This document shows, piece after piece, positions 9,572 through 63,485 of a stretch of 64,000 nt of DNA; positions within the stretch are counted from its first letter, which is position 1; each line of letters opens with the position of its first letter. The notes under the pieces were generated by a model. That model saw only the letters and a list, made by a program, of their open reading frames with translations, ran no database searches and was not told the origin of the DNA. The stretch covers positions 1 through 64,000 of the forward strand of contig CAVTCR010000058.1 of assembly GCA_963733195.1 (NCBI GenBank). The letters run 5' to 3'. Origin of the DNA: an uncultured delta proteobacterium. Its GTDB lineage: Bacteria; Desulfobacterota; Binatia; Bin18. The position numbers were made by a program, and so were the translations under genes.

Positions 9572-9584
9572 CCCCTGCGGGGCA

Positions 9585-9690
9585 ATGCAAAATTAAGAAT
9601 TGAGAATGAAGAATTAAGTAAGGAAGAGCCTACGAGCGAATCAAGAATACAGTTCCTCATTTTGCACTCTCCATTTTACATTCTTCATTG
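9585..9690. repeat. Heptamer tandem repeat with mirrored complement
   Basis: aatgcaa aattaag aattgag aatgaag aattaag ... ttttgca ctctcca ttttaca ttcttca. Confidence 0.6.
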
Positions 9691-9789
9691 TCTTGTGACT
9701 TTCCCTTGACTCTCCTGTGCTCTCAGTATCTACTGTCTCAAATTGAGTCTGATCGGTTCTTATGCCCGTGCATAAATGAGGGAGGATTG

Positions 9790-18494: not shown

Positions 18495-21400
18495 TTATCC
18501 TTCTCGTTGCACGCCAAGAGTGATCTTCATTCCCTCGATATCAACCGCCTCGACGCGATCACCCTGTGGTTGCATTGGTTGTACCGATCGGGCCAGGGTT
18601 TCTTGCTGAATGTATAACTGATGCTGCCCGATAGCTGACGCAAGCGCAGAATCGGTAGCATAAGTGACACGAATCCGATCTTCTACTTGATACCCGGCAT
18701 CTTTGCGCATCTGTTGAATAAGATGGACGACCTCGCGAGCCAACCCTTCAGCGATCAATTCTTCAGTAAGTAGACTTGATAGTTCGATGGAGATGAAACG
18801 ATCCGAACGGACGTCAGGCGCACCATCGCGAGCCTGACGTAGGATCTGGATCTCATTGGGTTGAAATGATTCCCCATCAAGAGTAATCGGATTCCCGCCT
18901 TCGATAGTAAGCATCTGCTCAAGGGAAAGATTGGCAATTTTCTTTCCGACCGCGCCGAAATTCTTGCCAAAGCGCGGTCCCAACAACTGCGGGTTGGGTT
19001 TTGCGTTCAGTACGACTTTTTCTTCTTCTGCTGTACTATACATAATCTCTTTCACATTGAGTTCTTCGCGGATGTAGGTTTCCAGCGGCTTTAACTCGTC
19101 CAACACCCATTGTTGACGGTGCAGAATCGTCAGTTGTGGCAGCGGCATACGTACCTTCACTTTGCGTTCGTTACGCAAGCTCCGGCCAAGTAAGACCACG
19201 CGTTGCATCCGAGTTACGCCATCTTCAAGTGCCAAATCGACTAACCCTTCATCGTAAGTAGGGAAAGACTCAAGATGCACACTGTCTGAGACTACCCCGT
19301 CCTGTAGCGTGACAAGGTTACGATAGATGGTATCAGCCAAGAATGGCGTAAATGGCGCCATCAATTTGGCAAAGCCAACCAGCACCTCGTACAGCGTGCG
19401 ATAGGCGTAGAATTTGTCGGCATCTTCACCTTCGCTCCAGAAGCGACGACGGTTGAAACGGATGTACCAGTTCGTCAACTCATCGAGAAAATCAACGAGT
19501 GCAGGAACAACATTATAGAGTCGATACGCTTCCATCTCGACGCTGGTGCGATGAATTAACGTTTGCTGGCGCGACAAAATCCAACGATCAAGAATATTGG
19601 GCGAGAGGCCAGGCGGGGTCAGTGTCGGTTTCCACTGATCGACCAGGGCGTAGGTGACAAAAAACTTGTACGCATTCCACCATGGCAAGAGCAGACGACG
19701 CACGGTGTCGCGCACTCCTTGTTCGCTGAAACGTAATTCTTCGGCACGCACCAGTGGTGAGTTGATCAGATAAAGCCTCAGCGCGTCAGCACCATGCTCG
19801 GCTAGAATTTCTTCCGGCTCAGGATAATTCTTGAGCCGTTTGCTCATCTTCTTGCCGTCTTCGGCGAGCACGAGACCATTCACGACAACGTGATGGAAAG
19901 CCGGTTTGTCGAACAAACCGGACGCCAGCACCATAAGGGTGTAGAACCATCCGCGTGTTTGATCGAGTCCTTCGGCAATAAAATCAGCAGGAAATGAACG
20001 GGAGAAGTCTTCCTTATGCTCGAACGGATAATGGAGTTGCGCGTAGGGCATCGACCCGCTTTCAAACCAACAGTCGAAAACATATGGAACTCGTCGCATA
20101 ACGCCGTTGCCAGAAGGAGCAGGGAAAGTAAGGTCATCGACAAACTCTCGATGCAGATCCGTGACTCGTGTCCCGGTCTGCTGTGCTAACTCCTCGACGC
20201 TGCCCAAGCACATCACTTCTTTACCGTCATTGCTTTGCCAGATCGGGAGTGGGGTACCCCAATAGCGATTGCGGCTGATTGCCCAGTCGCGTGCACCTTC
20301 AAGCCAATTGCCAAATCGACCATCACGCAGATGATCAGGTACCCACTCGGTCAGTTTGTTATTCGCGACGAGGCGATCACGAAACGCCTCCACGCGCACG
20401 AACCAGGTATTGACGGCACGATAGATCAACGGCGTGTCACTCCGCCAGCAAAACGGGTAGCTATGATTGATTGTCGCTTGATGAATGAGGTTCTTGTCTC
20501 GTTTGAGCCGCTCAATGATTTTCGGGTCGGCGTCTTTGACATGCAGCCCAAGAAAGTCGCTGACTGGCGCGGTGAATTTTCCTTCGTCATCGACCGGATT
20601 AACCATTTCAATCCCGGCTTTTTGACATGCATAAAAGTCTTCTTCACCGAACGCCGGTGCGATGTGAACAATGCCAGTACCGTCTTCGGTGGTAACATAG
20701 TCGGCAGGAAGGACACGAAAGGCTCCGGCTTCTTTCCGTTCAGCAAAATATGGGAAGAGCGGAGCAAAGCGGCGTCCGACGAGATCAGTCCCTTTGTAGC
20801 GTGCTTCGACGGTGTACGTTTCGGATTTCGGGAAGTACGCTTTTACTCGCGCTTCAGCGAGAATATAGCGAGTGCCATCAGCGTGATCGCGCACTTTGAC
20901 GTAGTCAATCGTTGGGCCGACCGCGAGCGCGAGGTTACTTGGTAAGGTCCAGGGGGTGGTTGTCCAGGCGGTAAAGAACGTGTTTTCTTCACCGTCAGCA
21001 GCAAAGCGAACGGTGATTGCCGGGTCCTGAACGTCTTTGTAGTTCAGGTTGGCCTCGAAGTTCGACAATACCGTGCCAAGACGGGTGGAGAAAGGCAACA
21101 CTTTGTGACCTTCATACACGAGGCCCCGATCCCACAACTGTTTGAAGGCCCACCACACGGTTTCCATGAACGAGAGGTCCATGGTCCGGTAGTCGTTGCG
21201 AAAATCCACCCAGCGACCCATGCGGCGAACCGTCTTTTCCCATTCCTGTGTATATCGCAATACGATCTTGCGACATTCCGCGTTAAAACGGGCGACTCCG
21301 AAACGCTCGATTTCGCTCTTGCCATTCAATCCGAGCGCTTGTTCGATTTCCATTTCGACCGGGAGGCCATGGCAGTCCCAGCCAAAGCGGCGTTCAACGT

Positions 21401-21629
21401 ACCGGCCCCGCATCGTCCAGAATCGCGGGATGATGTCTTTAATTGTCCCGGCTAAGAGATGTCCATAATGTGGTAGGCCGGTAGCGAAAGGAGGGCCATC
21501 GTAAAAAATAAACGGTGGCAGGTTGCGGGTTTTCTCTAGGCTTTTCGCGAAAATATCCTTCTCGTCCCATAATTTAAGGACGGCTAATTCCACTTCAGCG
21601 AGCTTAACGTTTTCTGCCACCGGTTCCAT
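18495..21629 (-). CDS. ileS: Isoleucine-tRNA ligase (type 2, eukaryote/archaea-like)
   Basis: FYDGPPFATGLPHYGH, GWDCHGLP, WTTTPWTLPSN, DWAISRNRYWG, AEGLDQTRGWF and KMSKR. Confidence 0.97.
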   Translation of the reverse strand: MEPVAENVKLAEVELAVLKLWDEKDIFAKSLEKTRNLPPFIFYDGPPFATGLPHYGHLLAGTIKDIIPRFWTMRGRYVERRFGWDCHGLPVEMEIEQALGLNGKSEIERFGVARFNAECRKIVLRYTQEWEKTVRRMGRWVDFRNDYRTMDLSFMETVWWAFKQLWDRGLVYEGHKVLPFSTRLGTVLSNFEANLNYKDVQDPAITVRFAADGEENTFFTAWTTTPWTLPSNLALAVGPTIDYVKVRDHADGTRYILAEARVKAYFPKSETYTVEARYKGTDLVGRRFAPLFPYFAERKEAGAFRVLPADYVTTEDGTGIVHIAPAFGEEDFYACQKAGIEMVNPVDDEGKFTAPVSDFLGLHVKDADPKIIERLKRDKNLIHQATINHSYPFCWRSDTPLIYRAVNTWFVRVEAFRDRLVANNKLTEWVPDHLRDGRFGNWLEGARDWAISRNRYWGTPLPIWQSNDGKEVMCLGSVEELAQQTGTRVTDLHREFVDDLTFPAPSGNGVMRRVPYVFDCWFESGSMPYAQLHYPFEHKEDFSRSFPADFIAEGLDQTRGWFYTLMVLASGLFDKPAFHHVVVNGLVLAEDGKKMSKRLKNYPEPEEILAEHGADALRLYLINSPLVRAEELRFSEQGVRDTVRRLLLPWWNAYKFFVTYALVDQWKPTLTPPGLSPNILDRWILSRQQTLIHRTSVEMEAYRLYNVVPALVDFLDELTNWYIRFNRRRFWSEGEDADKFYAYRTLYEVLVGFAKLMAPFTPFLADTIYRNLVTLQDGVVSDSVHLESFPTYDEGLVDLALEDGVTRMQRVVLLGRSLRNERKVKVRMPLPQLTILHRQQWVLDELKPLETYIREELNVKEIMYSTAEEEKVVLNAKPNPQLLGPRFGKNFGAVGKKIANLSLEQMLTIEGGNPITLDGESFQPNEIQILRQARDGAPDVRSDRFISIELSSLLTEELIAEGLAREVVHLIQQMRKDAGYQVEDRIRVTYATDSALASAIGQHQLYIQQETLARSVQPMQPQGDRVEAVDIEGMKITLGVQREG

Positions 21630-21743
21630 GTTGTTGTTATCCCTACAATGAATTTTCGCTGCAAAAGAGACACATAGGCTATAGACTGAGTCCGACTTTG
21701 GCTAGTGGGCAAACTGTTCGACAAATTTGGTCGGTCCGAGGAT

Positions 21744-21773
21744 TTGACAGCAAAGAAGAAGACGCCGCATAAT
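21744..21773 (+). promoter_or_regulatory. Sigma70-type promoter of cyclase 1
   Basis: TTGACA-N18-CATAAT, ending 7 nt before GTG 21781; no SD. Confidence 0.6.
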
Positions 21774-21780
21774 CGCCGCT

Positions 21781-23711
21781 GTGCCAGAAGAGCAGTCACA
21801 AGTACGGTCGGAGACCCGCAAGCTGGCGGCGATCATGTTCACGGACATCGTCGGCTTTAGTCGCCAGATGGGGACGGACGAAGCCCGCATGCTGCGGTTG
21901 CTGGAAATCCATAATCAGATTATCCAACAAGCAGTGACTGACCATCATGGCCACGTCATCAAAACCATCGGTGATGCCTTTCTCGTGGACTTTCCCTCCG
22001 TCGTCCACGCCGTGCAGTGTGCCCAGCAGATTCAGCGCAGTTGCGGACGCACAACGCCGAGCAAGAGAAAGCCGAACAGATTCACGTGCGCATTGGCATT
22101 CATCTGGGTGACATCGTGCAGCAGGATGGCGATGTGTTCGGTGATGGGGTGAACATCGCCTCGCGGCTGCAGACGTCTAGCCGAGCCGGACACGATCTGC
22201 ATCTCACAGGATGTGTCTATCGAGGAGGTGGCCAAGAAACTGGACCTGGGCACGGTGGTCTCGTTGGGCAAACCGAAGCTCAAGAACATCGCCGAGCGGT
22301 TCCAGGTCTATGCCCTATTACCCGAGCAGCCCACAGGGTTGCGCCAACAACTGCAAGTCCAGCGCCTGAAACTGTCGCATCGTGTTGGCTTTGCTCCACG
22401 AATGGCAATGGTGGCGCTGGCCCTCATTGCTACTACAGCCGTCATCATGCGCTATCTCTCCCTTTCCAACCCTAGCACCCAGTACCTAGCACCCAGCACC
22501 CAGTCCCTCCCCCTGCCCGGACAAACCCTCCATCGTCGTGCTGCCCATTCACCAACATGAGTAACGATCCCGAGCAGGAGTATTTCAGCGATGGCATTAC
22601 CGAAGACATTACGACAGGACCTCTCAAGATTTCCAGTCTCTTTGTCATCGCTCGCAACTCTGCCTTTACCTACAAGGGCAAGGCCGTAAAGGTGCAAGAG
22701 GTGAGCAGAGAGATGGGGGTACGGTATGTGTTGGAAGGCAGCGTTCGTCGAGCCGATAACCAAATCCGCATCACGGCGCAGTTGATTGATGGCCTGACGG
22801 GGAGTCACCTGTGGGCGGAACGCTATGATCGGCCTCTCAAAGACATCTTTGCGATACAGGATGAGATCGTGCAGAAGATTGTAACGACACTAAAACTGCA
22901 ACTAACTCTAATGGAGCAAGGATTCCTGGTGCGTAAACGCACGGACAATCTGGAAGCCTATGACTACTACTTACGCGGGGTAGAGTCTCTTTGGCGTGGA
23001 TGGAGAGAAACGAGGAAAGAGGCGAACATTCAAGCGCGGCAGCTTTTTGAGCACGCTACAGAGCTAGATCCAACGTATGCCGAGGCATACTCCTGGCTGG
23101 GAGGGACCTACTATTTCGACTGGTTCTTCGGGTGGAATCGCACTCCTCAGACTCTGGCACGGGCAGGAGAACTAGCGCAACAAGCCATGGCCTTGGACGA
23201 CACCTTTCCTACTCCTTACGCTTTATTGGGTATCCTCCACCTGTGGAAGAAGGAACATGACCAAGCCATCGCTGAGGCGCAGCGAGCTGTCACACTCGAT
23301 CCCAACAATGCTGAAGGGTATTTCAATCTGGGGAGCATCTTGGCCTTTGCTGAGCGGGCCGAGGAGGCGATCGAGTTGATTGAGAAAGCCATGCGCCTCA
23401 ATCCCCGCTATCCACCTACTTACGTATTCCAATTAAGTGTTGCCTATCGTATGGCGGGACGCTATGAGGAGGCCTTAGTATCGGGAAAACAAGCCCTCGC
23501 CTTCATGCCCAACTCTGGCCCCACCCATTTTAATCTGGCGGTCATCTATAGTGAGTTAGACCGAGCAGCAGAGGCCCAAACTGAGGTAGCAGAAATGCGA
23601 CGGCGTTTTCCTAATGCTTCTGTCGAGAATTTCAGACAGTTTCTTCCCTTCAAAAATCCAGCAGACGTAGAACGTCATCTTGCTGCCCTGCGCAAGGCGG
23701 GGCTCAAATGA
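21781..23711 (+). CDS. Class III adenylate cyclase - TM - TolB-like N domain - TPR protein, copy 1 (frameshifted)
   Basis: LAAIMFTDIVGFS, KTIGDAF, RIGIHLGD and DVFGDGVNIASRL; LPFTNMSNDPEQEYFSDGITEDI; TPRs ending ALRKAGLK. Spread over 4 frames. Confidence 0.9.
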
Positions 23712-23720
23712 ATTAAGATG

Positions 23721-23776
23721 AATTAAGAATGAAGAATTAAAAATTAAGAATGGGGGAATAGGCTAAAGGCTGAAGG
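23721..23776 (+). repeat. 56-bp direct repeat, copy 1
   Basis: aattaagaatgaagaattaaaaattaagaatgggggaataggctaaaggctgaagg is identical to 26561-26616. Confidence 0.9.
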
Positions 23777-23888
23777 CTCAAGGGAGGGAGGCAATGAAGA
23801 GGCAGGAGAAGCGAAGTGACGGCTTTCAGCTGTCAATCCTACTGTCCTCATGCTAAGGCTAGAGAAAATTCTCGTTTAGGAGGACGGA

Positions 23889-24239
23889 ATGGTGCAAATG
23901 ACCATGCAGGTCTCCGAAGAGCTTGCCCAACGACTACGGCCTCTTGGGACTTGGCTCCCGACCGTCTTGGAACTCAGTCTGGTCGGATGCCGGACCGTAG
24001 CTGCGGCAACGGCGACAGAAGTGATCGAGTTTCTCTCTCGGAATCCGACTCCTCAAGAGGTCCTTGCCTATCACGTGTCTGAACGGGCGCAGATACGCCT
24101 CCAACGCTTATTAGCGCTGAATGCCGCCGGAATGTTGGGGGAAGAAGAACAACTGGAACTCGACGAGGTGCAGCGTATTGAACATCTCCTCATTCTGCTC
24201 AAGGCACAGATCGCGACACAACTGCGTCAGGAGGTGTAA
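23889..24239 (+). CDS. Small helical hypothetical protein, putative partner/antitoxin of the HNH nuclease
   Basis: SD AGGAGG; MVQMTMQVSEELAQRL RHH-like start; stop overlaps the HNH start (TAATG). Confidence 0.75.
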   Translation: MVQMTMQVSEELAQRLRPLGTWLPTVLELSLVGCRTVAAATATEVIEFLSRNPTPQEVLAYHVSERAQIRLQRLLALNAAGMLGEEEQLELDEVQRIEHLLILLKAQIATQLRQEV

Positions 24240-24679
24240 TGGCAGCGGAGGTGTCAGTTGGGTTGCGCCAACTGGTTGCTAACCGGGCCGACTCTCGTTG
24301 TGAGTATTGTTTACTCCCTCAGGCAGTAGCATTGCATCGGCATGAGCCGGATCACATTGTGCCGCGTCAGCATGGGGGTGAAACGCAAGAGAACAACCTT
24401 GCGCTGGCATGCGTGCGCTGCAATCGCTACAAGGGGCCGAATGTCGGCTCGTTTGATCCGTTTACCAACGTCCTTGCTCCCCTGTTCAATCCTCGCACGC
24501 AGGTCTGGGCAGAACACTTCAGGTGGGATGAGGCAACGATCCTCCCTTTGACTCCGGAAGGCCGAGTAACCCTGAGGATTCTCCGGTTGAATGAGGGCGA
24601 CCGGCTCGTTGAACGACAGCGTCTCATAGCAGCTGGGTTGTATTTCTCCCCATCAAGGCACGACGATGACCCAAGCTGA
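24239..24679 (+). CDS. HNH endonuclease
   Basis: RCEYC...DHIVPRQHGG...NLALACVRCNRYKG...LFNPRTQVWAEHF. Confidence 0.92.
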   Translation: MAAEVSVGLRQLVANRADSRCEYCLLPQAVALHRHEPDHIVPRQHGGETQENNLALACVRCNRYKGPNVGSFDPFTNVLAPLFNPRTQVWAEHFRWDEATILPLTPEGRVTLRILRLNEGDRLVERQRLIAAGLYFSPSRHDDDPS

Positions 24680-26561
24680 AACCCGCAAGCTCGCGGCGAT
24701 CATGTTCACCGACATCGTGGGCTTTAGCCGCCAGATGGGCACCGATGAAGCCCGCATGCTGCGGCTGCTGGACGTCCATAACCGGATTATCCAGCAGGCA
24801 GTGGCAGAACATCACGGCACGGTCATCAAAACCGTCGGTGATGCCTTTCTGGTCGACTTTCCCTCGGTCGTACATGCGGTCCAGTGCGCCCAGCAGATTC
24901 AGGCGCAGTTGCAGACGCATAACGCCGAGCACGAGAAAGCCGAGCAGATTCACGTCCGCATCGGCATTCATCTGGGTGACATCGTACAGCGCGATGGCGA
25001 TGTATTCGGCGATGGCGTGAACATCGCCTCACGGCTGCAGACTCTAGCCGAGCCCGACACGATCTGTATTTCACAGAATAGTCTATCGAGGAAGTGGCCA
25101 AGAAACTGGCATTGGGCACGGTGGTCTCCCTGGGCAAGCCCAAGCTCAAGAACATTGCCGAGCGGTTTCCCAGTTTACGCTTTGCTGCCTGAGTCGCCCA
25201 AAGGCGTTACGCCAAACATTGCGGTCCAACATCTCAAATTGTCCCGGCGGATACGCCCGGCGCACTGGCTGAGCGTAGCTGGACTGTTATCATCGCTGGC
25301 GCTCTCCTCACTGTCCGCTACTTTTCTTTTTCTATCCCCGACACCCAACCCTCAACCCCTAGCACCCAGACTTTGCCGCTTGCCCGACAAACCTTCGATA
25401 GCGGTGCTGCCCTTCACCAACCTCAGCAACGACCCCGAACAGGAGTATTTCGGCGATGGCATGACAGTGGACCTTATCACCGACCTTACGAAGCTCTCAG
25501 GCCTGATTGTTACCGCCCGCTGTTCCGCCTTTACCTACAAGGGCAAGGCGGTGAAAGTGCAGGATGTGGGTCGGGAGCTGGGGGTGCAGTACGTGTTAGG
25601 GGGCAGTGTGCGCAAGGTCAGTGACCGGGTATTGATTACAGCCCAGTTGGCCGATGCCGCCACCGGAGGTCAAGTGTGGGCCGAGCGTTATGAGCGACCA
25701 TACGAGACCTCTTTGCGGTGCAAGAGGAAATCCGGCGAGAAATCTTCACCCATCTGGCGCTGAAGCTGACGGATGAAGAGCAAGAGCGGTTCGAGCGCGC
25801 CTCTGCGCCTCACCCAGAGGCCTATGACTATCTGCGGCGCGCGCAGGAGTACTATTATCGCGGCACGCCAGCAGACAACGCCCAGGCGCGGCAACTGGGC
25901 GAGAAAGCCATTGAAGTAGACCCGGCCTATGCGAGGGCATACGCCTTGCTGGCTTCGACGTATTTTGTTGAGTGGGTGAATCAGTGGAGCCACGACCCCC
26001 AGACGATAGAACGAGCCTTTGCCTTGGCGCAACAGACCCTCACGCTCGATGAGTCCTGGCTTGGCGCCCACGAGCTGCTGGCTCTCATCTATCTTTTGCG
26101 GGACAAGCAACCTGAACAGGCCCTAGCTGTGGTCAAGCGGTCCCTCGCCCAAGTGCCGAATTGGTTTGCTGGCTATGTAACCTAGGTGTACTCTTTAACG
26201 CTACAGGGCGGCCAGAGGAAACTATTGGGTTGCAAGAGCAAGCGGTGCGTCTCAGTCCCCGGTCTGACCGCTTCCTCCCGGTCTTAGGTGGTGCTTATCG
26301 CTTGCTGGGGCGGTATGAGGAGGCGCTCACCGCCCTCAAGGGAGCCCTCGCTGTTAATCGCAATCATCTCGGTGCCCACTTGGACTTGGCCGCCACTTAC
26401 AGTGAGCTAGGCCGAGAAGAGGAGGCCCGAGCCGAGGCAGCAGAGGTCCTGCGACTCAGTCCCAATTTCTCTCTGGAAGTTGACGACAGAGGCTTCCCTA
26501 CACAGAGCCAGCGATAACTGAGCGTTTGCTTGCCGCCCTGCGCAAGGCGGGGCTCAAATAA
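24666..26561 (+). CDS. Class III adenylate cyclase - TM - TolB-like N domain - TPR protein, copy 2 (frameshifted)
   Basis: Same cyclase motifs, PDKPSIAVLPFTNLSNDPEQEYFGDG and TPRs; the final frame ends ...AALRKAGLK*. Confidence 0.9.
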
Positions 26562-26616
26562 ATTAAGAATGAAGAATTAAAAATTAAGAATGGGGGAATA
26601 GGCTAAAGGCTGAAGG
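26561..26616 (+). repeat. 56-bp direct repeat, copy 2
   Basis: Identical to 23721-23776. Confidence 0.9.
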
Positions 26617-26765
26617 GGAGGAAATGAATGAGGATAAAGGAAGGAAAGAGCCAGAATATGTTCCCCGGTTTTTCCTTTATCCCTTCTCCTTTATCCTTTC
26701 TCCGTTATTCGGCTCCTTTTCCCTAACCGCTTACGTTTTACGCATTACGTTTTGCACGTTTTGTC

Positions 26766-29514
26766 TTAAGCCTTTCGTTGCTGAGCTTGTTCCAACCGGT
26801 CGCTGAGAATCTTCGAGATATTGAAAAAGATTTCTGTCGCGATACGTGGGTAGCGTCGTTTGAGGCGCTCTAAAAAGCGTTCGTTTACGGCTAACACTTC
26901 GACATCTTGGGTGGCGACAACATCGGCCATGCGTTCATGGTGACGAAGCAATCCCATCTCACCAAAGACATCGCCTCGCTCTAACGAGCCCAGCTTCCGG
27001 GACTGCTCCGAAGAGTGCATGAGGACATCGGCGGTACCATTAATGACCACGTACATTTCATTTCCCAGGTCTCCTTGCCGAATAATTGGTTGCGCCTTGC
27101 GGAAACGATTTCAGTTCGCCCATCAGCGTGACAATCTTGGCCTGGAGCGGACGCAAGCCGGCAAACAACGGAATGGTCTTATGCGGGTCTTGTCCCAGTT
27201 TCACGTAGAGCACATCCCACAGCGTGATGACCGGAGTAGTGGTGAGCAGGGCAGGTAGCAGCGCTAATTCCGCGAGAACCCCAAACGCGACCGTCGTGGC
27301 AGACAGCAGACCAAACTCTTGGATCGGAACAAAGGTCGAAAGTCCAAAGGAGAGGAAGCCGAGAAACACCAGCAGGGAGTAATAGAGCGTCGGTTTCCCT
27401 ACAGTGCAGAGCGAGCGTAAGAGCGCTTCTCGCTGATCCGACGTCCTGCGTGCCTCTGCGCTCAACCGGCTCATGATGTGAATGGTGTCATCGACGGCCA
27501 GACCGAGCACGATCGAGGCAATGGTATTGGTGCCGATGCTGAGCGTGGCACCACTCACTCCCATGAGACCAAAGAACGCGAGAATCGGAAAGATGTTGGG
27601 AATCATGGCAATAATGCCAACGCGAAAAGAGAGAAACATCACCGTCATTATGACGAAGATCACACCGGCAGTGAGTGCCAGGCTCTGAATTTGTCCGGAA
27701 ACCAGGCTGCTTGCCGTGCGCGTATTGAGAATCAGCGTTCCCGTGGGATGCACTTTGATCTCAGGAGGGAAATGCTCTTTGGCAAAGGTGTGGATTTTTT
27801 GTACGGCGTCAGCAATTTCGCGTGGATGCGTGAACGAGGTACGTACCTGAATGTTCGACCGCGAATACCACGGATGGTCAACGACATGGAGATGATCGTG
27901 GGACTGAGAATGAATGATCTGCATCACCCCATCCAGTTTTGCTTGATCCCCCCAAAAACTGGCGGTCACAGTTGGTGCAGGAGGAGGGGTGCCGTCTTCT
28001 GTTGGTGCCGTTTGGATACCTTGATCGACCAGCTCACAGAAATCGACAAACGAAACCGTCTTATCCACGCCTGGTAGAGAGTTAATGTAGAGTTGCAGAT
28101 CCTTGATCCGTTTGAGCGTATCCGCTTTCTTCATGATGTCATTTTCGTTCCCGTCAATCGTGACGTAGAAGGCCATGCTGCCACCTAACGCATGATTAAT
28201 GACATCGGTGGCTTGGCGGACGGGATGACTCGCACGGAAGAGGGACAGAAAATTGGAGCCTACCTGAATCGAGGGAATCGGTAACATCGCAAGCACCGCG
28301 ATCAGCGCGCTTCCGATAATGACCGCGGTGCGGTATCGAATAATAAACTGGGTGAACGTCCGCAGCGCGGCGGTTAATCGCGGAGAATAGGTTTCTTGAT
28401 GACGAGAAGGGAGTGGCATGAGTGCGAGTGCGGCGGGAATCAGAATCGTCGCCAGGAGAAAGGCAATGGTAATGCCAATGGCGGAATAGAGGCCCATCTC
28501 ACGGATACTGACGATGTTGTTGGTGAAGAGCGAGAGAAATCCCAGGACCGTCGTCAACGCTGCCATCAGGACAGGCGTATTCATGCTGCGCAAGGTCTCT
28601 AACAGCACCTCTTCTTTCGAGCGGCCTGGGAGAGCGAGTTCGTAGTACTCAGCAACCACGTGGAGAGAGTAGGCGACCCCAAGGACGAGCAACATCGGCG
28701 GTAATGACAGTGTTCCGAGGCTGAGGCGACTGCCGCCAAGCACCATGAGTCCCAGTGTCCAGGTGACAGTAATAATCACCGCCAGTGCGGGAAGAATGAC
28801 CCCGCGCACGGAGCGGAGGCAGAAGAACAACACCACCAGAATCAAGATCAGTGCTACTGGGAGCAAATACGAGAGATCCTCGACGATGGCGCGGGCGGAG
28901 ACCGCCTTAAAATGTGGTAGCCCCGTATAGTAGATCTGTTCGGGGCCCTGGGCCTGGTCGATAATCGCCTGGATTTTTTCGTCGATGCCGCGACGGACAA
29001 ACTCATTGTCGGTGATACTTTCTAAGAAGAAGATATTGATCGCTGCCGCTCGCCCATCCGCAGCAACCAAGTTCTTATGGTAGATGGGCTGGGTCGCCAC
29101 CTTCTCTTTAATGGTCGCTGCCTCTTCGACCGTGGCCGGGATTGTAGGAACCAGTAACTCCTGTTCTGCTCCGATGACCTTGGCAATAATGTCCGGAGCG
29201 TTGGTAAGACTAAAGGCACTCTTGACCTCAGGAATTTTGCGAAACTCGTCGGTGAGGCGTTGGATCTTCTGGAGGGTTTGCGGCGTGTAGATGTTGTCGG
29301 CGAGGATGCCGATGACCGCGACGTTTTCACTGCCAAACAAGCGAACGACGTCATTGTAATACTGCCGCTCAGGATCATTGTCGGGGAGCAGACTATCAAG
29401 GGAACTGTCGATCTGGATATGGCGAGCGTGGAAAGCGAAGAACACGGTGAGGGCAGCAATGAGAAAGAGAATGAGTCGCGGTCGGTGAATAACCAGCCGA
29501 TAAACAGAATCCAT
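26766..29514 (-). CDS. MMPL/RND-family transporter with C-terminal cyclic-nucleotide-binding domain (frameshift near 27080)
   Basis: Two RND halves ([12 protein letters not shown]; GLAVDDTIH), then IPLFAGL.. and [11 protein letters not shown]...[10 protein letters not shown]...RMADVVA (CAP/cNMP signature). Confidence 0.88.
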
Positions 29515-29559
29515 ATGCCCTCCTTATTTGTTGCACTCCCCGTGCGCGTGCAACCTCAG

Positions 29560-29576
29560 CGCAGGAACTGTGCCAC
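29560..29576 (-). promoter_or_regulatory. Sigma54 -24/-12 promoter for the MMPL gene
   Basis: Minus strand gTGGCACagttcCTGCg has exact GG-N10-GC spacing, about 45 nt before ATG 29514 (SD AAGGAGG). Confidence 0.7.
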
Positions 29577-29675
29577 GAAGATAGCCTTAATAAGGATAGT
29601 TTTCTAATATATTTTCGTGCTTTTCGACCTGATTCCCTCTTGGTCTCTTGTATCAACGTGATATATCACGCTGAT

Positions 29676-31197
29676 ATGTCAACCGACCTCGAACGAACAC
29701 GAACGCGTCTCGCGAGTTTGATTGAAATCAATCAGTTACTCATGGGGACTCTCGACTCGGATGAGTTACTGCGAGTGATTATCGAGTCAGCGATCCGCTT
29801 GTTTACGGTGGAAGCTTGCAGCATCGGCCTTATTGATGAAGGAAGGCAGCAGTTAGCCTTTGCCTTTTCGCTTGGTGGGGCAAATGTCGAAGAGTTTCGT
29901 ATCGCGCTGGGGCAGGGGATTGCCGGGTGGGTCGCACAGACCGGCGAAGCCGTCATCTCTAATGATGTGTCGCGCGATCGTCGGTTTTTTCAAGGCGTCG
30001 ATCGGCAGACTGGATTCAGGACGAGGTCTGTCCTGTGTGCGCCCTTGAAACAACACAACCACATTATTGGGGTTATCGAAGCCATGAATACCACCATCCC
30101 GGCAGGCTTTCTGCCGGAAGATCTCCAACTGCTGATGGCATTTGGTGGCTTGGCAGCAACTGCCCTCACCCGTGCGAAAGCGTTTGCGACAGTCCACAAC
30201 ACCAACACGGCATTTCAAGAAGAGGCACAGGAGCGATACCGCTTTGTCACGGGTTCGAGCCCGGCCATGCAAGAGGTCATACGGTTTGCGCGCACTACCG
30301 CTGGGACATCCACGACGGTCTTGCTTCTTGGTGAGAGCGGCACTGGCAAAGAGGTAGTGGCGCGTGCAATCCACCGCTGGAGCCCGCGCGCAGAGCATCC
30401 GTTTGTGGCAGTCAATTGTACCGCGCTGACGGCGGAGTTGTTAGAAAGTGAGCTGTTTGGTCACGAGAAAGGCGCTTTCACCGGTGCGGTGGCGCAGAAG
30501 AAGGGCAAGTTTGAACTCGCTGATGGCGGTACGATCTTTCTCGACGAGATTGGCGATCTTGCGCCCAACCTGCAAGTAAAGCTGCTACGGGTCTTGCAAG
30601 ACAAGGAGTTTCAGCGGGTTGGTGGAATCAAAAATCTCCGGGTCGACGTGCGTATTCTTGCCGCGACCAATCGTAAGCTTCCTCAGGCTATGCAAAAAGG
30701 GCTTTTTCGTGAGGATCTCTACTATCGACTCAATGTTGCCTCGATTACCCTGCCACCCCTTCGTGACCGATGCGAGGACGTTCCGACACTGGTCTGTCAT
30801 TTCATCGAACAGTCGTGTCTCGCAGTAAATCGTGTGCCGATGCCCATCGAGCCCACAGCGTTGGCATTGTTGTGTGCGTATGCGTGGCCTGGCAATGTAC
30901 GTGAACTGCAAAATGCGATTGAGCGTGCGGTGGTGTTTGCCGCGGGTCCAGTGATCACCGTCACTGATTTGCCGGCGGAAATCCGTCAACAGTCTGTGAG
31001 TCCTGCGGGAGTGGCGCTCCAGATCCCTGGGCTCGACGATGAGCTACCGTTAGCTGAGGCAACCGACGTGTTTCTCCGAGCCAAGATTCGCAGAACGCTC
31101 GACATTGCGGGTGGCAGCCAAACCGAAGCAGCGAGACTGTTAGGGTTGCCACAATCGAATTTGTCGCGCTCTGATGAAACGCTTGCGGTTACGGTGA
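29676..31197 (+). CDS. GAF-domain sigma54 activator (NifA-like architecture)
   Basis: [13 protein letters not shown]...[24 protein letters not shown] (GAF), [22 protein letters not shown] and HTH. A frameshift near 31170; the corrected end is ...MKRLRLR*. Confidence 0.92.
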
Positions 31198-32200
31198 GCT
31201 TAAGGATTGGGTGTTTGTTGCAATCACGGCTCCTTCAACATTGCCGATGTCCACTGTCATATAGTCCCGACAACCAAAGACCGGAATCGTGACTCCGTCA
31301 CTCGCGAGCGTCGTTCTGGCGATCTCCACAATCTCATCGACCTGAACATCTGATGAAGCTGGGTCGTGGTGTGTCAGTCCCAGTGCCTTGGCCCCAACTC
31401 GCTTGGCGACCCGGGCGCTGTAATCGGGAGTCGCATGGCCCCAGCCTGCGGTCATTTCCTCATACTTCTTGCGTGTATATTGCGCGTCCATGACGAGTAA
31501 ATCTGCATTCTGTAAGTGTGTAGCCAAGCGCGTCGGAATCCCATCCTGGTTTTCATGGTCTGTAAGAAAGGCGAACGTCTGTCCAGACGGTTGTTCCTCA
31601 AAGCGGTATGAAATCGTTCGCTCGGGATGATGGCTGCGGTGCATAGTAATGACCAGACACTCGGCAAGCTTGAAATGAGTCCCGTTGGGGAACGAGATCG
31701 GTACTCCTTCGGCGGTCAGACGTTCAAGCGACTCGATAGTAAGCATGTTTTGCCCACCTTGCGGATGGATGACGTGCACGGTGCTATTAGGATTGGTGAT
31801 GTCAACGCAATCGATATGGCTCCCGACTTCACGCAGATCGATGGGGAAATATGGTGATTGCATAAGAGTTTGATATACGGCACGCGGCCCCAGCCCTTGA
31901 TCGGTTGGTCCGTAAATGGTCACAGGCACATGTTTGAGGTAGGGAAAGGTTGAGAGAACAAGTCCCTGGGTGTGATCATGATGATAGTGGGTCTGAAGGA
32001 TAGTCACCGCTTGTCCGCCGCCCCGAGCAAAATCAGCAGACAGTGGAACGATGCCTGTCCCAGCGTCGATCAACAGCCAGTGACCAGTGGGGTAAGCATG
32101 GAGATTCGACCCACAGGCATGTGGTATTACCGCCGTAGATGGTTTTGCTGGGATGAGAGACCGGGCAACTACCGCGCGTTCCGTAAAATGTTACTCGCAT
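31189..32200 (-). CDS. MBL-fold metallo-hydrolase (PhnP/phosphodiesterase-like; frameshift near 32090)
   Basis: [11 protein letters not shown]...[35 protein letters not shown] and THHDP. Confidence 0.88.
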
Positions 32201-32234
32201 AATACCCCTCGTTGGGAATTTATAGGTATAATAC

Positions 32235-32251
32235 CGCACAGAATGTGCCAA
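32235..32251 (-). promoter_or_regulatory. Sigma54 -24/-12 promoter for the MBL gene
   Basis: Minus strand tTGGCACattctGTGCg has GG-N10-GC spacing, about 35 nt before ATG 32200. Confidence 0.65.
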
Positions 32252-32438
32252 GCAAAGAGAACCTGGAGGCTACGGATGAGGAATCTCATCTCCAACTTGA
32301 GGGTAATCCCTTGTCGACGAGAAACCGCATTGAGCGGAAATTGAATTGTTCCTGATTGTTGGAAGTGGTGGCTCTTGACCGCTTCTCTCATGATGTAAAG
32401 AATATCATACTCACGCGTGAATAGGAGAATCGACTGCG

Positions 32439-32637
32439 ATGGGCAAACGAAAGATGATTAATTTCGCTCGACCGGGTGCTGGCCAATATGAAGATGTCGA
32501 AGAAGAGGGTATGCCAAAACCCTGTGCGATGGGGATTCCGTGGGTAAATCCCGATACGCTGAGTACGCTTGAACAGTCGAAAAATCAATCGCACTGGTCC
32601 CAAAGGTGAGCCGCTACCAGAGCCAAAAAAATCCTAA
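32439..32637 (+). CDS. Small hypothetical protein not in the ORF track
   Basis: AGGAG precedes the ATG; reads MGKRKMINFARPGAGQYEDVEEEGMPKPCAMGIPWVNPDTLSTLEQSK. It is 56 aa as read, or about 65 aa if one A is removed from the run near 32580. Confidence 0.45.
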
Positions 32638-32677
32638 ACCAAACTGCTGACAGTGCGGGGTGCTAAGTTCAGATAGA

Positions 32678-32761
32678 GTAGGGTGGGCAAAAGCGGAGCG
32701 TTGCCCACCAGCTTAGTGGCTTTGTAGGGCGTTGGGCTTCACCAAGCTCAGCCCAACCTAC
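32678..32761. repeat. GTAG-type REP doublet
   Basis: gtagggtgggcaa..ttgcccacc and gtagggcgttgggct..agcccaacctac. Confidence 0.65.
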
Positions 32762-32837
32762 CTGTTAATCTTAATTCTCGCCTACGAGAGCGCAAGATAT
32801 AGGCGAGAATACACGCAGTGTTTCCGACAAAACTTAT

Positions 32838-33131
32838 CTACTCGTGAGGCAAACGTTTCGCTGCGGAAGCGCGGGTAGCACGTCGGCGAACGGTATCAAA
32901 CAACGGATGCGATTGTCGACGGATGCCGAAGTAATAGCAACAAATGTCGTTATCGAGGTCGTTGCTGAACGTACGTTGTTGGCCGTCGTCAAACAAAATC
33001 CGCACCAGACACGTACCACCAATCAACGTCGAGGTCATTTCTTCAACAACAACACCCTGCCCCCACTCTTCGTAGCGAAGGTGAATGACGTGGTCGCCAA
33101 GTCGTAAATAGAGTCGCGGTCCGTCGCGCAC
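32838..33131 (-). CDS. DUF3553-like small SH3-barrel protein
   Basis: LYLRLGDHVIH..YEEWGQGVVVEE...LVRILFDDGQQRTF.NDL...CCYY.G. Confidence 0.65.
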   Translation of the reverse strand: MRDGPRLYLRLGDHVIHLRYEEWGQGVVVEEMTSTLIGGTCLVRILFDDGQQRTFSNDLDNDICCYYFGIRRQSHPLFDTVRRRATRASAAKRLPHE

Positions 33132-33268
33132 GATGAATCCTACAATTTGGTTGACCTCTTGTAGCTGAAAACTCTGGAGTGAGGCAAGAAGGCAATTTTC
33201 GCGCCAATGAAGAAATTTGCTAAAGCAAAACAGACTCTGCTATGAGCCGAACCAGGAGGGTGACCACC

Positions 33269-34525
33269 ATGAGTGAAGGACAAACGCACGATGCACTGCT
33301 GGCTGGGATTAAGGTGTTGGATTTTACCCATGTCCTTGCCGGTCCTACATGTACACGTATTCTGGCCGATCTCGGAGCAGAAGTGATCAAGCTCGAAGCA
33401 GCGCCGAATGGAGATGTCGCTCGTGGTATGTTCTATGTCAAAGAGAATCTGAGTGCGCTGTTTCTATACACTTGCGCAGGCAAAAAGAGTCTCTGTCTTG
33501 ATTTGAAAAAATCGCAAGGGTTACAGATCGCCAAAGATCTGGTTGCTAAATTCGATGTGGTCGTGGAGAATTTTGCGCCGGGAGTGATGAAGAAACTCGG
33601 ACTCGATTATGCCGTGCTCAAAGAGATCAATCCTCGGATCGTCATGGCGTCAATTTCGGGATTTGGTCAATCCGGTCCCTGGGCTGATCGCACTAGCTTC
33701 GATATCATTGGTCAGGCAATGAGTGGCGTGATGCACATGACTGGCGAGCCGGATGGCCCGCCACAGTATGTGGGGAATTACATCGGTGATCCCAATGCTG
33801 GAGTGCAGGCGGCGCTGGCGATTTGTGCGTCGCTCTTCTATCGCGACCGTACTGGCAAAGGGCAGTACATTGACATTGCGCAAGTTGACTCACTGCTCTA
33901 CCTCGACTTGGTGAATATTCCTTACTACGCGCTTTCTAATGGCGCGTTTAATCCCAAGCGCTTTGGTGCGCATCACTATGCTGTCTGTCCTCTTGGCGTC
34001 TTCAAAGGAAAAGATGGATACGTTGTCCTGCAAGCGATCGAACACCAATGGCCGAATTTTGCCAAAGCTATAGGCCGGGAAGATCTGATCACAAATCCAA
34101 ACTTCGCAACCAATGCGAAACGGTTAGAGAATCGTGAAGAGCTGGCAAAAATTATCGAAGCCTGGTTGCAGTCGTTTCCGAACAATGATGCGGCCTTGAG
34201 TGCCCTTGCAGAACAGCGAATTCCTTGTGCCCCGGTACTTGATATGGGCGGGGCACTCAGCCATCCACAAACATTAGCGCGTGGTATGGTCACAGAAATC
34301 GAACACCCACTGTATGGCACAATGCCAATTGTTAATACTCCTTTTGTAATGTCCGAAGCTCCACGGCACATCCAAGGACCGGCACCGTTTCTTGGTCAGC
34401 ATAACGCTGAGGTGATCGCGCAGCATTTAGGCTATGATGATGGACGCATCGATCAATTGACTCAAACGGGGGTCCTCTTTGAAGAGGAGCGGATCAAAAA
34501 GCTGCGCCAGCAAGGGGTTATCTAA
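33269..34525 (+). CDS. CaiB/BaiF family III CoA-transferase
   Basis: LAGIKVLDFTHVLAGP...LADLGAEVIKLE, DVVVENFAPG, SISGFGQSGP and APFLGQH. Confidence 0.95.
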   Translation: MSEGQTHDALLAGIKVLDFTHVLAGPTCTRILADLGAEVIKLEAAPNGDVARGMFYVKENLSALFLYTCAGKKSLCLDLKKSQGLQIAKDLVAKFDVVVENFAPGVMKKLGLDYAVLKEINPRIVMASISGFGQSGPWADRTSFDIIGQAMSGVMHMTGEPDGPPQYVGNYIGDPNAGVQAALAICASLFYRDRTGKGQYIDIAQVDSLLYLDLVNIPYYALSNGAFNPKRFGAHHYAVCPLGVFKGKDGYVVLQAIEHQWPNFAKAIGREDLITNPNFATNAKRLENREELAKIIEAWLQSFPNNDAALSALAEQRIPCAPVLDMGGALSHPQTLARGMVTEIEHPLYGTMPIVNTPFVMSEAPRHIQGPAPFLGQHNAEVIAQHLGYDDGRIDQLTQTGVLFEEERIKKLRQQGVI

Positions 34526-34527
34526 CG

Positions 34528-36067
34528 ATGATGGCCAACGAAGTCGAACTCAAACTCCTCATTGCTCAGGGCGATATAGAGCGGCTTTTACATCATCCTG
34601 TACTCGAGACAGTTGCGCGTCGCGAATTGCTACCGCAGCAACTCCTCAGTGTGTACTATGACACCCCTGATCTCGACCTGAAGAAGCACCGCACGGCTCT
34701 TCGCTTGCGCCGCACTGGCACTCGGTGGATACAAACGGTGAAGACGGAAGGGAAGATTACCGGTGGGTTGCACGAACGGCCAGAGTGGGAGAGCGAAACC
34801 GCAGAGGGCACGTTTGATTTTGCTGCGATTCCTGATCCAGCCGTACGCGAGTTTTTTGCTGACGAGAAAATTCGTGAAACACTGCGGCCAGTATTTGTGA
34901 CCGAGTTTACACGCACGAGTTCCTTATTGGAGTTCGCCGGTGGTGATGTGGTCGAGCTGTCTCTCGACCAAGGAGAGATTTGTGCTGAAGAGAAACGATT
35001 GCCGATCAGTGAGGTTGAATTAGAACTCAAAGCTGGTAATCCGGCGCGGCTCTTTGATCTCGCTTTGCAATTGCAAGGATCAATCTCTTTGAAGCTGGAG
35101 AATGTTAGCAAGGCAGAACGCGGGTATCGGCTGATCGCTCCCATAGTTCTTACCCCGGTGAAAGCGCAAACTCCTGAATTTTCGCCGGAACTTTCTACGA
35201 GGGAAGCGTTTGTGCATATTCTACGGAGTGAGGTGGTGCATCTCCAGGCTAATGAAGAAGGTGTGATTACAAGGAGAGCACCCTGAGTTTATCCATCAGA
35301 TGCGCGTAGCACTACGGCGAATGCGTTCGGCCTTGCGGGTGTTCTCCGCCGTCGTCCCTCGCGAGACGAGTCTGCCGCTCAGTGAGGAACTCCGTTGGTT
35401 AACCAAGGAGCTCGATGCTGCTCGTAACTGGGATGTGTTTGTGTTGGAAACCTTACCGCCTATTCTTGCAGCGTTCCCTGAACACCAAAGTCTCATGTCC
35501 TTAAGGACAGAGAGTGATCAATTACGCCAGCGACAAAACCTCTGGGCAAGCGGAGCGATAACATCGGGGCGCTATCAACAACTGCTCCTGCGTCTTGGGA
35601 CGTGGTTATGTTCGCAGCCGTGGCAAGTGGAGGGAGAGGAAAACACTGCGCACATCGCAGAGCAGCCTATCTCGGTGTTTGCTGAGCAAGTTTTGCAAAA
35701 GTATCATAAACAATTCAAAAAACAGGGACGACATCTTGCGACACTCGCGCCCGAAGAGCGACATCAGGTAAGAATTGCTGCGAAGAGACTACGCTATGCT
35801 GCCGAGTTCTTCTCTTCTTTATATTCACACAAACGGACACGGCGATATATCGCGGCCTTGGCGAGTTTGCAGGAAATTCTCGGTTTGCTGAATGATGCGG
35901 CGACAGCAATATCATTGTTGAAGGACCTCGAGGGAACGGCGGATGACACGACGCAACAACAAACGAAGAACCTTGTGCTTGGTTGGGTCGGTGGGATGAG
36001 TCAGGCGCGAACGCAAGAACTCGCTGACGCGTGGAAGCATTTTGTGGAACAGAAAGTGTTCTGGTAA
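34528..36067 (+). CDS. CYTH plus CHAD domain protein (inorganic triphosphatase-like; frameshift near 35280)
   Basis: EVELKL, YYDTPD..L, EVELELKAG and SKAERGY; then HQMRVALRRMRS and HQVRIAAKRLRYAAEFF. Confidence 0.9.
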
Positions 36068-37101: not shown

Positions 37102-38440
37102 ATGCAGGGAGAAAGTACTGGAGGGTTTCGGCAGTTCGTTCGGTTTGTTGGGACACTTGGAGTGCTCGCTGGGTTTCCCACAACCGTCTTTGCTGAGGAT
37201 GCTTTGAATCCTGGCGATACCGCTTGGGTGCTCATTTCTACTGCCCTGGTACTCTTCATGATGATTCCCGGGCTGGCGATGTTCTATGCTGGCCTCGTCC
37301 GCAAGCGAAATGTTCTTTCTCTGTACATGCAATGTTTTACACTTACGGCGATTGTGACAGTGATCTGGACTTTCTACGGATATAGCCTGGCATTTGATAC
37401 CACCGGCATGCAGACTGGAGAGAAAGGGTTGCATGCGTTCATTGGGAGTCTGGAAAAAGCTTTTCTTGCCGGAGTGACCCCCGACTCATTGCGTGGCACG
37501 ATCCCGGAAGTCCTCTTCTTCATTTTTCAAGCGACGTTCGCTATCATCACTCCTGGTTTGATCCTTGGTGCATTCGCCGAACGCATGAAATTTGCTGCGG
37601 TGCTCCTCTTCTCGGCTTTGTGGGTGACCGTTGTCTATCTCCCGATTTGCCATATGGTCTGGGCCGGTGCTGGCGCGTACTTTGCCGATATGGGTGTGTT
37701 TGATTTTGCTGGTGGTATCGTAGTGCATATCACTGCAGGAGCGTCTGCACTTGTTGCCGCTATTGTCATAGGGAAGCGGCGAGGCTATCCAGAAACTCCT
37801 ATGCCGCCGCACAACATGACAATGGCACTGATCGGAACAGGCATGTTGTGGGTTGGGTGGTTTGGGTTTAACGGAGGCAGTGCACTGGCTGCCAACGGAC
37901 AAGCGAGCATGGCAGTTGTTGTGACACAGATTTCTCCTAGTGTTGCCGCGTTGGTCTGGAGCGCGATCGAGTGGTTGAAAGTCGGCAAGCCGAGCGCCCT
38001 TGGTTTAAGCCACTGGAGCGATTGCCGGTCTAGCGGCAATTACTCCAGCTTCTGGCAACGTTGGCCCAGCTGGAGCAATGGTTATTGGTGCGGTAGCTAG
38101 CGCGTTAGCGTATTTTGCAGTGGCCGTACTGAAACGCCAACTAGGCTACGATGATGCGCTGGACGTGGTTGGCGTTCACGGGGTCGGTGGATTGGTCGGG
38201 ACTATACTTGTAGGAATCTTCGCTTCTTCGGCGTTTGGTGGGAGTGTCCAAGACCTGAACATTGGTACACAGCTCGGAGTCCAAACCATAGCTGCGTTGA
38301 GTACTGTTGTGTACAGCATGCTTATGTCCTTAGTTATTTTGAAGATTGTTGACGTCTTGGTAGGACTGCGGGTTCATGAAGAAGACGAGTTTTCTGGACT
38401 CGATTTAGCCGAGCACGGAGAAGTGGGGTACGATTTGTAG
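37102..38440 (+). CDS. amt: Ammonium transporter (frameshift near 38005)
   Basis: GDTAWVLISTALVLFM, FQATFAIIT, DFAGGIVVH, LWVGWFGFNGGS, DDALDVVGVHG and GLDLAEHGE. Confidence 0.95.
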
Positions 38441-47403: not shown

Positions 47404-47424
47404 TGTTGCCAGAGGAGGTGCACG

Positions 47425-63411: not shown

Positions 63412-63485
63412 GGTTGACAGTTCTCCTCTCTCCTTCCTATAACCTGTCACTTGTTTTCTGTCACCTGAGCGAAAAAGGAGGAATT

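Follow-up and report, generated by a model that had tools for sequence, protein, structure and literature searches.

A sigma-54 activator with a cyclic-nucleotide-type GAF domain paired with an MMPL exporter in Candidatus Binatia: partial support for a predicted cyclic-nucleotide circuit

We analyzed a 64,000-nucleotide stretch of DNA from an uncultured soil bacterium of the Binatia (assembly GCA_963733195.1, contig CAVTCR010000058.1, positions 1 to 64,000; hereafter the window, W), which is part of contig C58 of a genome of 6.95 Mb in 87 contigs with 54% G+C. By the list of open reading frames (ORFs) and Pfam, the region at 21.7-32.3 kb encodes two class III cyclases with tetratricopeptide repeats (TPR), an MMPL exporter, a sigma-54 activator (bacterial enhancer-binding protein, bEBP) and, convergent with the latter, a metallo-beta-lactamase (MBL)-fold protein. 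A preliminary description of this DNA had proposed that the five genes form one circuit governed by a cyclic nucleotide monophosphate (cNMP). All five of its domain calls, including a cNMP-binding domain on the exporter and a GAF domain on the activator, were confirmed by Pfam, and we find the proposal partly supported. The predicted link from the activator through a promoter to the exporter is strong, and the reading of the GAF domain as a cNMP sensor is a specific prediction. The MBL-fold gene, a plausible phosphodiesterase, is loosely attached to the pair, and the cyclases are weak evidence for a circuit. The features are listed in Table 1. In what follows, G and three digits denote genomes of relatives, L and three digits fetched loci, C and a number contigs, and X1-X4 public runs.

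Table 1. Features of the region, with genes read through the frame breaks of the assembly.
Feature	Position	Strand	Basis and remarks
Class III cyclase - membrane/TolB-N-like - TPR gene, copy 1	21781..23711	+	PF00211 in two frames (21781-22475), TPR in third; at least 4 pieces
Class III cyclase - TPR gene, copy 2	24666..26561	+	PF00211 24666-25100, 72.7 bits
MMPL/HAE3-like resistance-nodulation-division (RND) exporter with C-terminal cytoplasmic cNMP-binding domain	26766..29514	-	PF03176 122 bits (29514->27058), orthologues
cNMP-binding domain of the exporter (shifted frame)	26766..27059	-	PF00027 49 bits
Exporter -24/-12 (sigma-54 type) promoter, TGGCACAGTTCCTGC	29561..29575	-	TGGCAC-N5-CTGC; ends 46 nt before ATG 29514
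26-bp palindrome (core GTGATATATCAC); candidate enhancer (upstream activating sequence, UAS) and autoregulatory site	29651..29676	.	arms 94% complementary
Sigma-54 activator (bEBP): GAF, AAA+ with GAFTGA, Fis-type helix-turn-helix (HTH)	29676..31197	+	Pfam, frame comparison
Activator start and stop	likely ATG 29676; in-frame stop 31195-31197	+	Pfam span 29640/29676-31292 as assembled
MBL-fold phosphodiesterase-like gene (PF12706 Lactamase_B_2, THYHHDH)	31189..32200	-	Pfam span 32073->31189, 49.8 bits
MBL -24/-12 type promoter, TGGCACATTCTGTGC	32236..32250	-	TGGCAC-N5-GTGC; ~35 nt before ATG 32200

The activator and the exporter form a conserved divergent pair. With the activator as query we searched 30 relatives and fetched 15 other loci around the best matches, six of which carry an exporter orthologue with the cNMP domain: it is divergently adjacent to the activator in G001, G003, G010, G017 and G004, and stands at a distance of 3 kb in G005. 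The nine loci that remain are either paralogues or short contigs; one of them, in G018, has an IS66 transposase in the exporter's expected place. A query with the exporter, for which 80 loci were fetched with one genome per species, extended the comparison to other phyla. The activator adjoins the exporter only within Binatia, in four (L025, L026, L027 and L035) of the ten close orthologues for which 2 kb or more of upstream DNA is available, and the pair is conserved across several genera of Candidatus Binatia. The linkage of activator and cNMP-domain exporter claimed in the preliminary description is thereby upheld, together with the conserved promoter described below. As for the synteny expected of the entire gene set, the activator-exporter pair does recur, but the MBL-fold gene adjoins the activator in only a minority of genomes and the cyclase neighbors are not orthologous.

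Both genes flanking the activator had been said to carry promoters of the form TGGCAC-N5-(C/G)TGC, and both motifs indeed lie on the minus strand where described and have counterparts at the equivalent position in other genomes. The exporter promoter was found as TGGCATGGTTCCTGC in G001, TGGTACAGTTCCTGC in G003, CGGCATAGGTTTTGC in G010 and CGGCATGGTTCCTGC in L025, while in G005 a -24/-12 motif faces outwards from the activator. The three other exporter paralogues of the window's genome (on C70, C10 and C18), which have no adjoining activator, show no such promoter within 260 nt. The MBL promoter was found as TGGCATACTTTCTGC in G002, CGGTATGATTCCTGC in G010 and, with the GC of the -12 element lost, TGGCACATTCTGTAC in G001. 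No GG-N10-GC promoter was found before the MBL-fold gene in G016 and G008, where that gene is not beside the activator, so that the promoter occurs only where the two genes adjoin, a small correlation that is suggestive.

Between the divergent genes lies a palindrome whose end coincides with the A of the activator's likely ATG and which is centered ~90 nt upstream of the GG of the exporter's -24 element. Palindromes with the core GATATATC lie 90-134 nt from the -24 element in G001, G003, G010 and L025. Neither the window nor the rest of the genome contains the site a second time: a search of the window allowing up to two mismatches returned nothing apart from three unrelated sites. From the sequences we infer, with good support, that the activator acts through a sigma-54 promoter on the exporter, since the pairing is conserved, the promoter and the palindrome are conserved, the exporter paralogues lack the promoter, and the genome has one rpoN gene for sigma-54 (C62:310592). 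Two further candidates in this region were rejected: a weak palindrome at 32400-32431 (76% complementary) bears no resemblance to that at 29651-29676, and a sigma-70 promoter (TTGGTC-16-TATATC) considered for a leaderless activator mRNA had no site there in a consensus scan.

The pair also varies between genomes in ways that we record here. In L017 (G001:C836) the activator is 93% identical to that of the window and the adjoining exporter only 60%, with promoter and palindrome kept, and a paralogue may have taken the exporter's place in G001. In L018 (G003:C330, 1850-2564) and L025 (3774-4629), promoter and exporter are separated by one or two small hydrophobic ORFs (~35-70 amino acids); the window has no small ORF between the -24/-12 promoter and the exporter. 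The exporter of L012 (G010:C64, 1603-3700) is without ~200 residues of the first periplasmic domain, its N-terminal ~30 amino acids being followed by a jump to residue 235, and the same locus carries a response-regulator-cyclase gene (8976-10244) 2.5 kb beyond the MBL-fold gene.

The activator matches PF00158 with 239.3 bits, GAF_2 with 73 bits and HTH_8 with 18.1 bits, the last being below the cut-off of 22 because the final nine residues are out of frame in the assembly. The GAFTGA and Walker motifs are readable in the translation as EKGAFTGA, GESGTGKE and FLDEIG. It is one of 34 activator-type matches in the genome. As the GAF sequence pattern put forward in the preliminary description is generic for canonical GAF domains, we tested the subtype directly. 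A phmmer search of residues 1-195 against the Protein Data Bank (PDB) gave CyaB2 (1.7e-22), PDE2A GAF-B (5e-22), Lcd1 (3e-19) and PDE10A GAF-B (2e-14), with PDE5A also among the best and the NifA-like Nlh1 at only 9e-6; the eight best matches were all GAF domains that bind cAMP or cGMP. A structural model built on an alignment of 18 relatives (pLDDT 82) had as its best fold match the GAF domain of Lcd1 with bound cAMP (E 1.3e-13, TM 0.77/0.82, 28% identity), followed by the HD-GYP protein 4mcw, PDE10A, PDE2A, PDE5A and CyaB2. Eight of the ten top-ranked fold matches are cAMP- or cGMP-binding GAF domains, the HD-GYP entry being an exception. The GAF domains of Escherichia coli NorR and FhlA served as controls at E up to 0.01; NorR gave one match, not a cNMP GAF, and FhlA gave five, none of them a cNMP GAF. 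The activator's GAF domain is thus supported, by sequence and by modeled fold, as specifically of the cAMP/cGMP-binding kind, unlike those of NorR and FhlA, in agreement with what had been proposed for it.

We then compared the predicted pocket with that of CyaB2, for which the relevant passage of PMC4411481 lists R291, T293, I308, T309, D356 and N359 as cAMP contacts. In the HMMER alignment these correspond in the window protein to Ala, Ser49, Phe64, Ser65, Asp109 and Thr112, respectively. All 18 relatives keep Ser49, Asp109 and the TGF-T stretch unchanged. The description of the NKFDE motif as partial is correct by letters: N and F-x3-D are present and equally invariant, and K and E are replaced by D and R. 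The pocket is compatible with a cyclic nucleotide, which is a predicted ligand only. Binatia also have a second group of GAF activators, at L122 (G010:C36:57553-59106) and L124 (G027:C1).

The exporter combines an MMPL core with a cNMP-binding domain; both domains had been named before and both are present, but in the assembly the second lies in another frame. A genome scan scored it at 69.5 bits (26853-27107), and PF00027 reaches 65-68 bits in exporter orthologues of 916-926 amino acids. The phosphate-binding cassette reads FGEMGLL...ERMADV in the window, with ERTADV as the orthologue consensus, so that the Gly-Glu and the Arg, which we take to be the phosphate-binding residues, are present. 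The core gives MMPL and sterol-sensing-domain matches of the twelve-helix RND type and stays below the curated cut-offs of TIGR00921 (HAE3; 231.8 vs 351.9), TIGR03480 (HpnN; 122.3 vs 751.85) and NF052374 (53 vs 1100 bits); by score, then, the exporter is a member of the MMPL superfamily only. The cNMP-binding tail is found on 46 of the 80 exporter loci fetched, in Binatia, Desulfobacterales, Myxococcota, Acidobacteriota, Gammaproteobacteria, Verrucomicrobiales and Omnitrophota. Our literature search found no paper on an MMPL exporter fused to a cyclic nucleotide-binding domain.

These results suggest the following mechanism. The activator would bind the palindrome at its own start codon and, from ~90 bp upstream, open the -24/-12 promoter of the divergent exporter gene. 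The exporter would move a cargo that is probably lipid-like, and its tail would bind a cyclic nucleotide in the cytoplasm. As the GAF domain is of the cAMP/cGMP-binding type and the tail of the cNMP-binding type, one and the same nucleotide would induce the pump (through GAF, AAA+ and sigma-54) and gate it (through the tail), a feed-forward arrangement. The signal would most likely be cAMP from a subset of the many class III cyclases in the genome, and in this genus and one other a phosphodiesterase-like product of the convergent MBL-fold gene, behind a similar promoter, may trim it. We regard this circuit from a cyclic nucleotide through sigma-54 to a cNMP-gated exporter as plausible and put it forward tentatively.

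The MBL-fold gene overlaps the end of the activator gene by 9 nt, as it does in G010, where the orthologue is intact (327 amino acids). Its model (pLDDT 94) is closest in fold to YhfI of Bacillus subtilis (E 1e-13, TM 0.62/0.82, 19-20% identity), followed by ElaC/RNase Z proteins. The earlier label 'PhnP-like' is weak: PhnP ranks 37th among the fold matches (yeast PDE1 ranks 40th) and the PhnP model TIGR03307 reaches 28.7 of the 272.25 bits set as its cut-off. According to the part of PMC9117128 that deals with YhfI, this enzyme prefers cAMP/cGMP, and a passage of PMC9293780 groups YhfI with Rv1339 and CpdA of Corynebacterium glutamicum as 'atypical class II' phosphodiesterases, which have [T/S]HxHxDH as their motif. 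The protein of the window resembles these enzymes in its PF12706 fold and in its motif THYHHDH, whose residues H71, H73, D75 and H76 are invariant in 32 homologues; it differs from YhfI by ~80 extra residues, the TM score being 0.62 by query length and 0.82 by target length. The HxHxDH motif does not separate such phosphodiesterases from RNase Z proteins, because the latter share it, as the same part of PMC9117128 indicates. The family comprises 2244 homologues (E up to 1e-5), only generically named in the sources, and orthologues occur in seven of the 61 relatives searched. The protein is likely a phosphodiesterase of some kind; that it is a cNMP phosphodiesterase in negative feedback, as had been proposed, we hold to be rather unlikely. 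The nearness of YhfI in fold speaks for such a role, but the scores far below the curated models, the position beside the activator in a minority of genomes and the missing palindrome, all given below, do not. With respect to the activator-exporter pair the gene is an accessory, loosely attached.

Two class III cyclases neighboring the exporter had been named as part of the circuit, and their PF00211 domains and catalytic motifs are present, but the genes are frame-broken and give weak evidence for it. The two copies are 76% identical in DNA over 1067 nt (blastn) and are old paralogues. The best solved relative of copy 2 is 3mr7 (E 1.3e-29), and FTDIVGFS, IKTVGDAFL and GDVFGDGVNIASR align to 3mr7 and Ma1120; these stretches hold what we take to be the metal-binding Asp pair, the Lys/Asp pair that reads the base (in the adenylate reading) and the Asn/Arg of class III enzymes. 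The genome contains at least 63 cyclase loci by tblastn and at least 150 PF00211 pieces by HMM search, and we put its number of cyclases at 60-100. Cyclase-TPR genes recur beside the pair in G003, G005, L025 and L032, which is above chance, the cases being partly non-independent, and the cyclase next to the pair in G005 is matched better by loci on C43, C86 and C5 than by the two window copies. We therefore rejected the neighboring cyclases as a dedicated signal source after the genome counts and the finding of non-orthology; cyclases being so numerous and the neighbors non-orthologous, adjacency says little. No paper on an adenylate cyclase in Binatota was found in the literature.

Two other features lie among these genes. 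Between the cyclases, at 23889-24679, a 116-residue ORF without family match is directly followed by a 146-residue HNH endonuclease (PF01844, with a weak match to the HNH domains of IscB/Cas9), the stop of which overlaps with the beginning of the cyclase 2 gene; this stretch occurs only once in the genome. Tandem repeats of 7 bases (GAATTAA, AATTAAG, TTTATCC) form short arrays at 23720-23751, 26561-26591 and 26669-26708, directly 3′ of the stop codons of the two cyclase genes and the exporter gene.

The activator might also control the exporter through sigma-54 while its GAF domain senses another ligand, such as the cargo of the pump or a metabolite; a cyclic nucleotide would then act, if at all, on the tail only, and the MBL-fold gene and the cyclases would be unrelated. 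Substrate-sensing regulators beside efflux genes are common, and several of our results weigh against a cNMP circuit and would fit this alternative or leave parts of the circuit bare. Positions 64 and 65, equivalent to CyaB2 I308 and T309, differ among the orthologues (FS, AM, CM, DM), and F64 is the stacking position, which may mean a different ligand or a local misalignment; K and E of the NKFDE motif are not kept. GAF domains in general bind many ligands, as stated in the passage of PMC4411481. The second group of GAF activators in Binatia (~42% identical), which is unlinked to this locus, matches the same cNMP GAF domains (CyaB2 1e-24), so that the subtype is common to more than this locus, and activators with a GAF domain of this type may be a wider class in the lineage. 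Among the neighbors of activator paralogues (C62, C65, and loci in G007, G018, G019 and G003) no common cNMP theme was found. The share of the genome close to a cyclase locus is 5.5% at up to 3 kb, 8.5% at up to 5 kb and 12.5% at up to 8 kb, so that such neighbors are expected by chance at 5-12% of loci, and they are not orthologous across genera. In a further genus (G017, G004, L026, L027) no -24/-12 motif was found, with the gene pair and half of the palindrome kept. The MBL-fold gene stands beside the activator in three of seven genomes (this one, G010 and G002); it is elsewhere in G016 and G008, and contig ends cut the remaining two. Neither the window nor the genome search found a copy of the palindrome before its promoter. 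Its product scores 35.1 bits against a cut-off of 400 in the curated cNMP phosphodiesterase model NF041851, slightly less than in the RNase Z models TIGR02651 (47.7 vs 292.95) and NF000801 (52.9 vs 252), and it has relatives 50-64% identical in candidate-phyla-radiation bacteria and Firmicutes, a spread which does not point to a signaling role. Against sensing of another ligand stand the sequence and fold matches of the GAF domain, predominantly to cAMP/cGMP-binding domains and absent for NorR and FhlA, and the presence of a cNMP-binding domain in every intact exporter orthologue seen. We consider this alternative to be on the unlikely side, though less so than the two that follow.

The two other explanations that we weighed concern the locus itself. 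That the neighborhood is fortuitous, with chance motifs and no regulation in common, could draw on the promoter pattern TGGCAC-N6-TGC being barely enriched in the genome (82 sites vs 65 expected from base composition) and on the window shuffles, of which 22 in 100 gave two or more matches (mean 0.78) where the window itself has only two. The two motifs, however, are both on the right strand just upstream of the genes flanking the activator, at distances from the start codons that fit promoters, for which chance would be roughly (5.9e-6 x 85)^2. They are moreover kept across genera at the same places and absent from the exporter paralogues and from MBL orthologues away from the activator, and the activator-exporter pairing is itself conserved. 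We hold a chance neighborhood to be very improbable. The other explanation is decay, and here too the assembly as it stands speaks against a working circuit: all five genes carry 1-nt frameshifts, which had escaped the preliminary description, and none is an intact reading frame when intact orthologues of relatives are used as rulers (exporter 916-926, activator 513-529, MBL 327 and cyclase-TPR 611 amino acids). The exporter has one frame change near 27060-27094, the assembled ORF ending at 27058 with the cNMP-binding domain in the other frame; the activator has one at 31169-31171, where the recognition helix of the HTH is cut and its last nine residues fall out of frame; the MBL-fold gene has one near 32086-32088, with the first ~40 residues lost. 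Cyclase 1 has at least three frame changes, and cyclase 2 has three (3>2>1>3) plus an internal compensated shift. If these frameshifts were real, the cyclases, the pump tail, the activator HTH and the MBL-fold gene would be strain-specific pseudogenes. In favor of decay, ~10 breaks are concentrated in this 10.5-kb region, compared with ~3-4 suspects in the other 53 kb, and the long frames of ileS (3.1 kb) and metH (3.5 kb) in the same window are open. We compared contigs from four other samples (X1-X4) over 21700-32300; they bridge only the activator and MBL breaks. At both sites these contigs, 97-99% identical, have one base fewer (31169/31171 in X1 and X4; 32086/32088 in X2, X3 and X4), and so the breaks are probably consensus errors. 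X4 is an RNA library with pieces of relatives' exporter, activator and MBL genes, whose contigs can show neither transcription nor a 5′ end. In addition, each of the three breaks read in detail (exporter, activator, MBL) is a single inserted base outside homopolymers, and similar splits affect many of the genome's other cyclase genes. Errors of the assembly consensus are thus the highly probable origin of the frame breaks, and decay is an improbable one; the genes were read through with the help of the orthologues.

The proposed circuit, in which a cyclic nucleotide both induces and gates the exporter, resembles several known systems in its parts. In its sensor domain the activator is like Lcd1 of Leptospira interrogans (a cAMP-binding GAF with GGDEF; PDB 5w10), its best fold match, and CyaB1/CyaB2 of Anabaena (cAMP-binding GAF domains on an adenylate cyclase; PDB 1ykd), among its best sequence matches. 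The output of those proteins is a nucleotide cyclase, whereas here it is a sigma-54 AAA+ motor with an HTH domain; the NKFDE motif here is partial, and ligand binding by this GAF domain is a prediction. With NifA, FhlA and NorR the activator shares the order GAF, AAA+ (with GAFTGA) and Fis-type HTH, the -24/-12 promoters and an upstream site. It stays below the curated cut-offs for NifA (416.6 vs 528.85 bits, the best model), NorR (376 vs 476) and FhlA (298 vs 830); the GAF domains of NorR and FhlA are of another subtype, and the target here is an exporter. The exporter is like the HAE3/HpnN-like MMPL RND exporters in its core, and differs in its scores and in its C-terminal cNMP-binding domain. 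As in the cAMP-CRP system, a cyclic nucleotide would be read directly by an activator of transcription. CRP does so with a CNB domain and works with the sigma-70 polymerase, in contrast to the GAF domain on an ATP-dependent sigma-54 activator here.

To our knowledge, bacteria couple cAMP to transcription by way of proteins of the CRP family and the sigma-70 polymerase. Our searches, judged by titles and the openings of abstracts, turned up no description of a sigma-54 activator that senses a cNMP directly, and we found no paper on an arrangement such as this one, in keeping with the claim that no described system has it. If the GAF domain binds cAMP, the activator would add a second path, driven by ATP, by which cAMP controls gene expression, and, if true, this would give a first handle on the purpose of the very large cyclase families in soil Binatia. 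In the exporter with its tail, likewise, a second messenger would gate an RND-type transporter, in a fusion that is widespread across phyla. A broader proposal, that sigma-54 activators with cNMP-type GAF domains form an unrecognized class that couples cyclic-nucleotide signals directly to sigma-54 transcription, of which one, in Binatia with their 60-100 cyclases per genome, makes up a feed-forward unit with an RND exporter gated by the same nucleotide and, in some lineages, a co-regulated phosphodiesterase reset, seems to us possible but more doubtful than the circuit itself.

Elsewhere, no Rfam match was found in 21000-33500 at E up to 0.1. The window encodes two further sigma-54 activators of the response-regulator type (14809-16338 and 45787-48789), one of them with a PAS histidine kinase. 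Other likely frame breaks in the window concern a gene at 34528-36067, with CYTH and CHAD domains split over two adjacent ORFs, an ammonium transporter (Amt) at 37102-38100 that covers profile positions 1-254 of 399 only, and LarA at 62404-63450, which covers 4-59 of the 152 positions of the C-terminal domain only.

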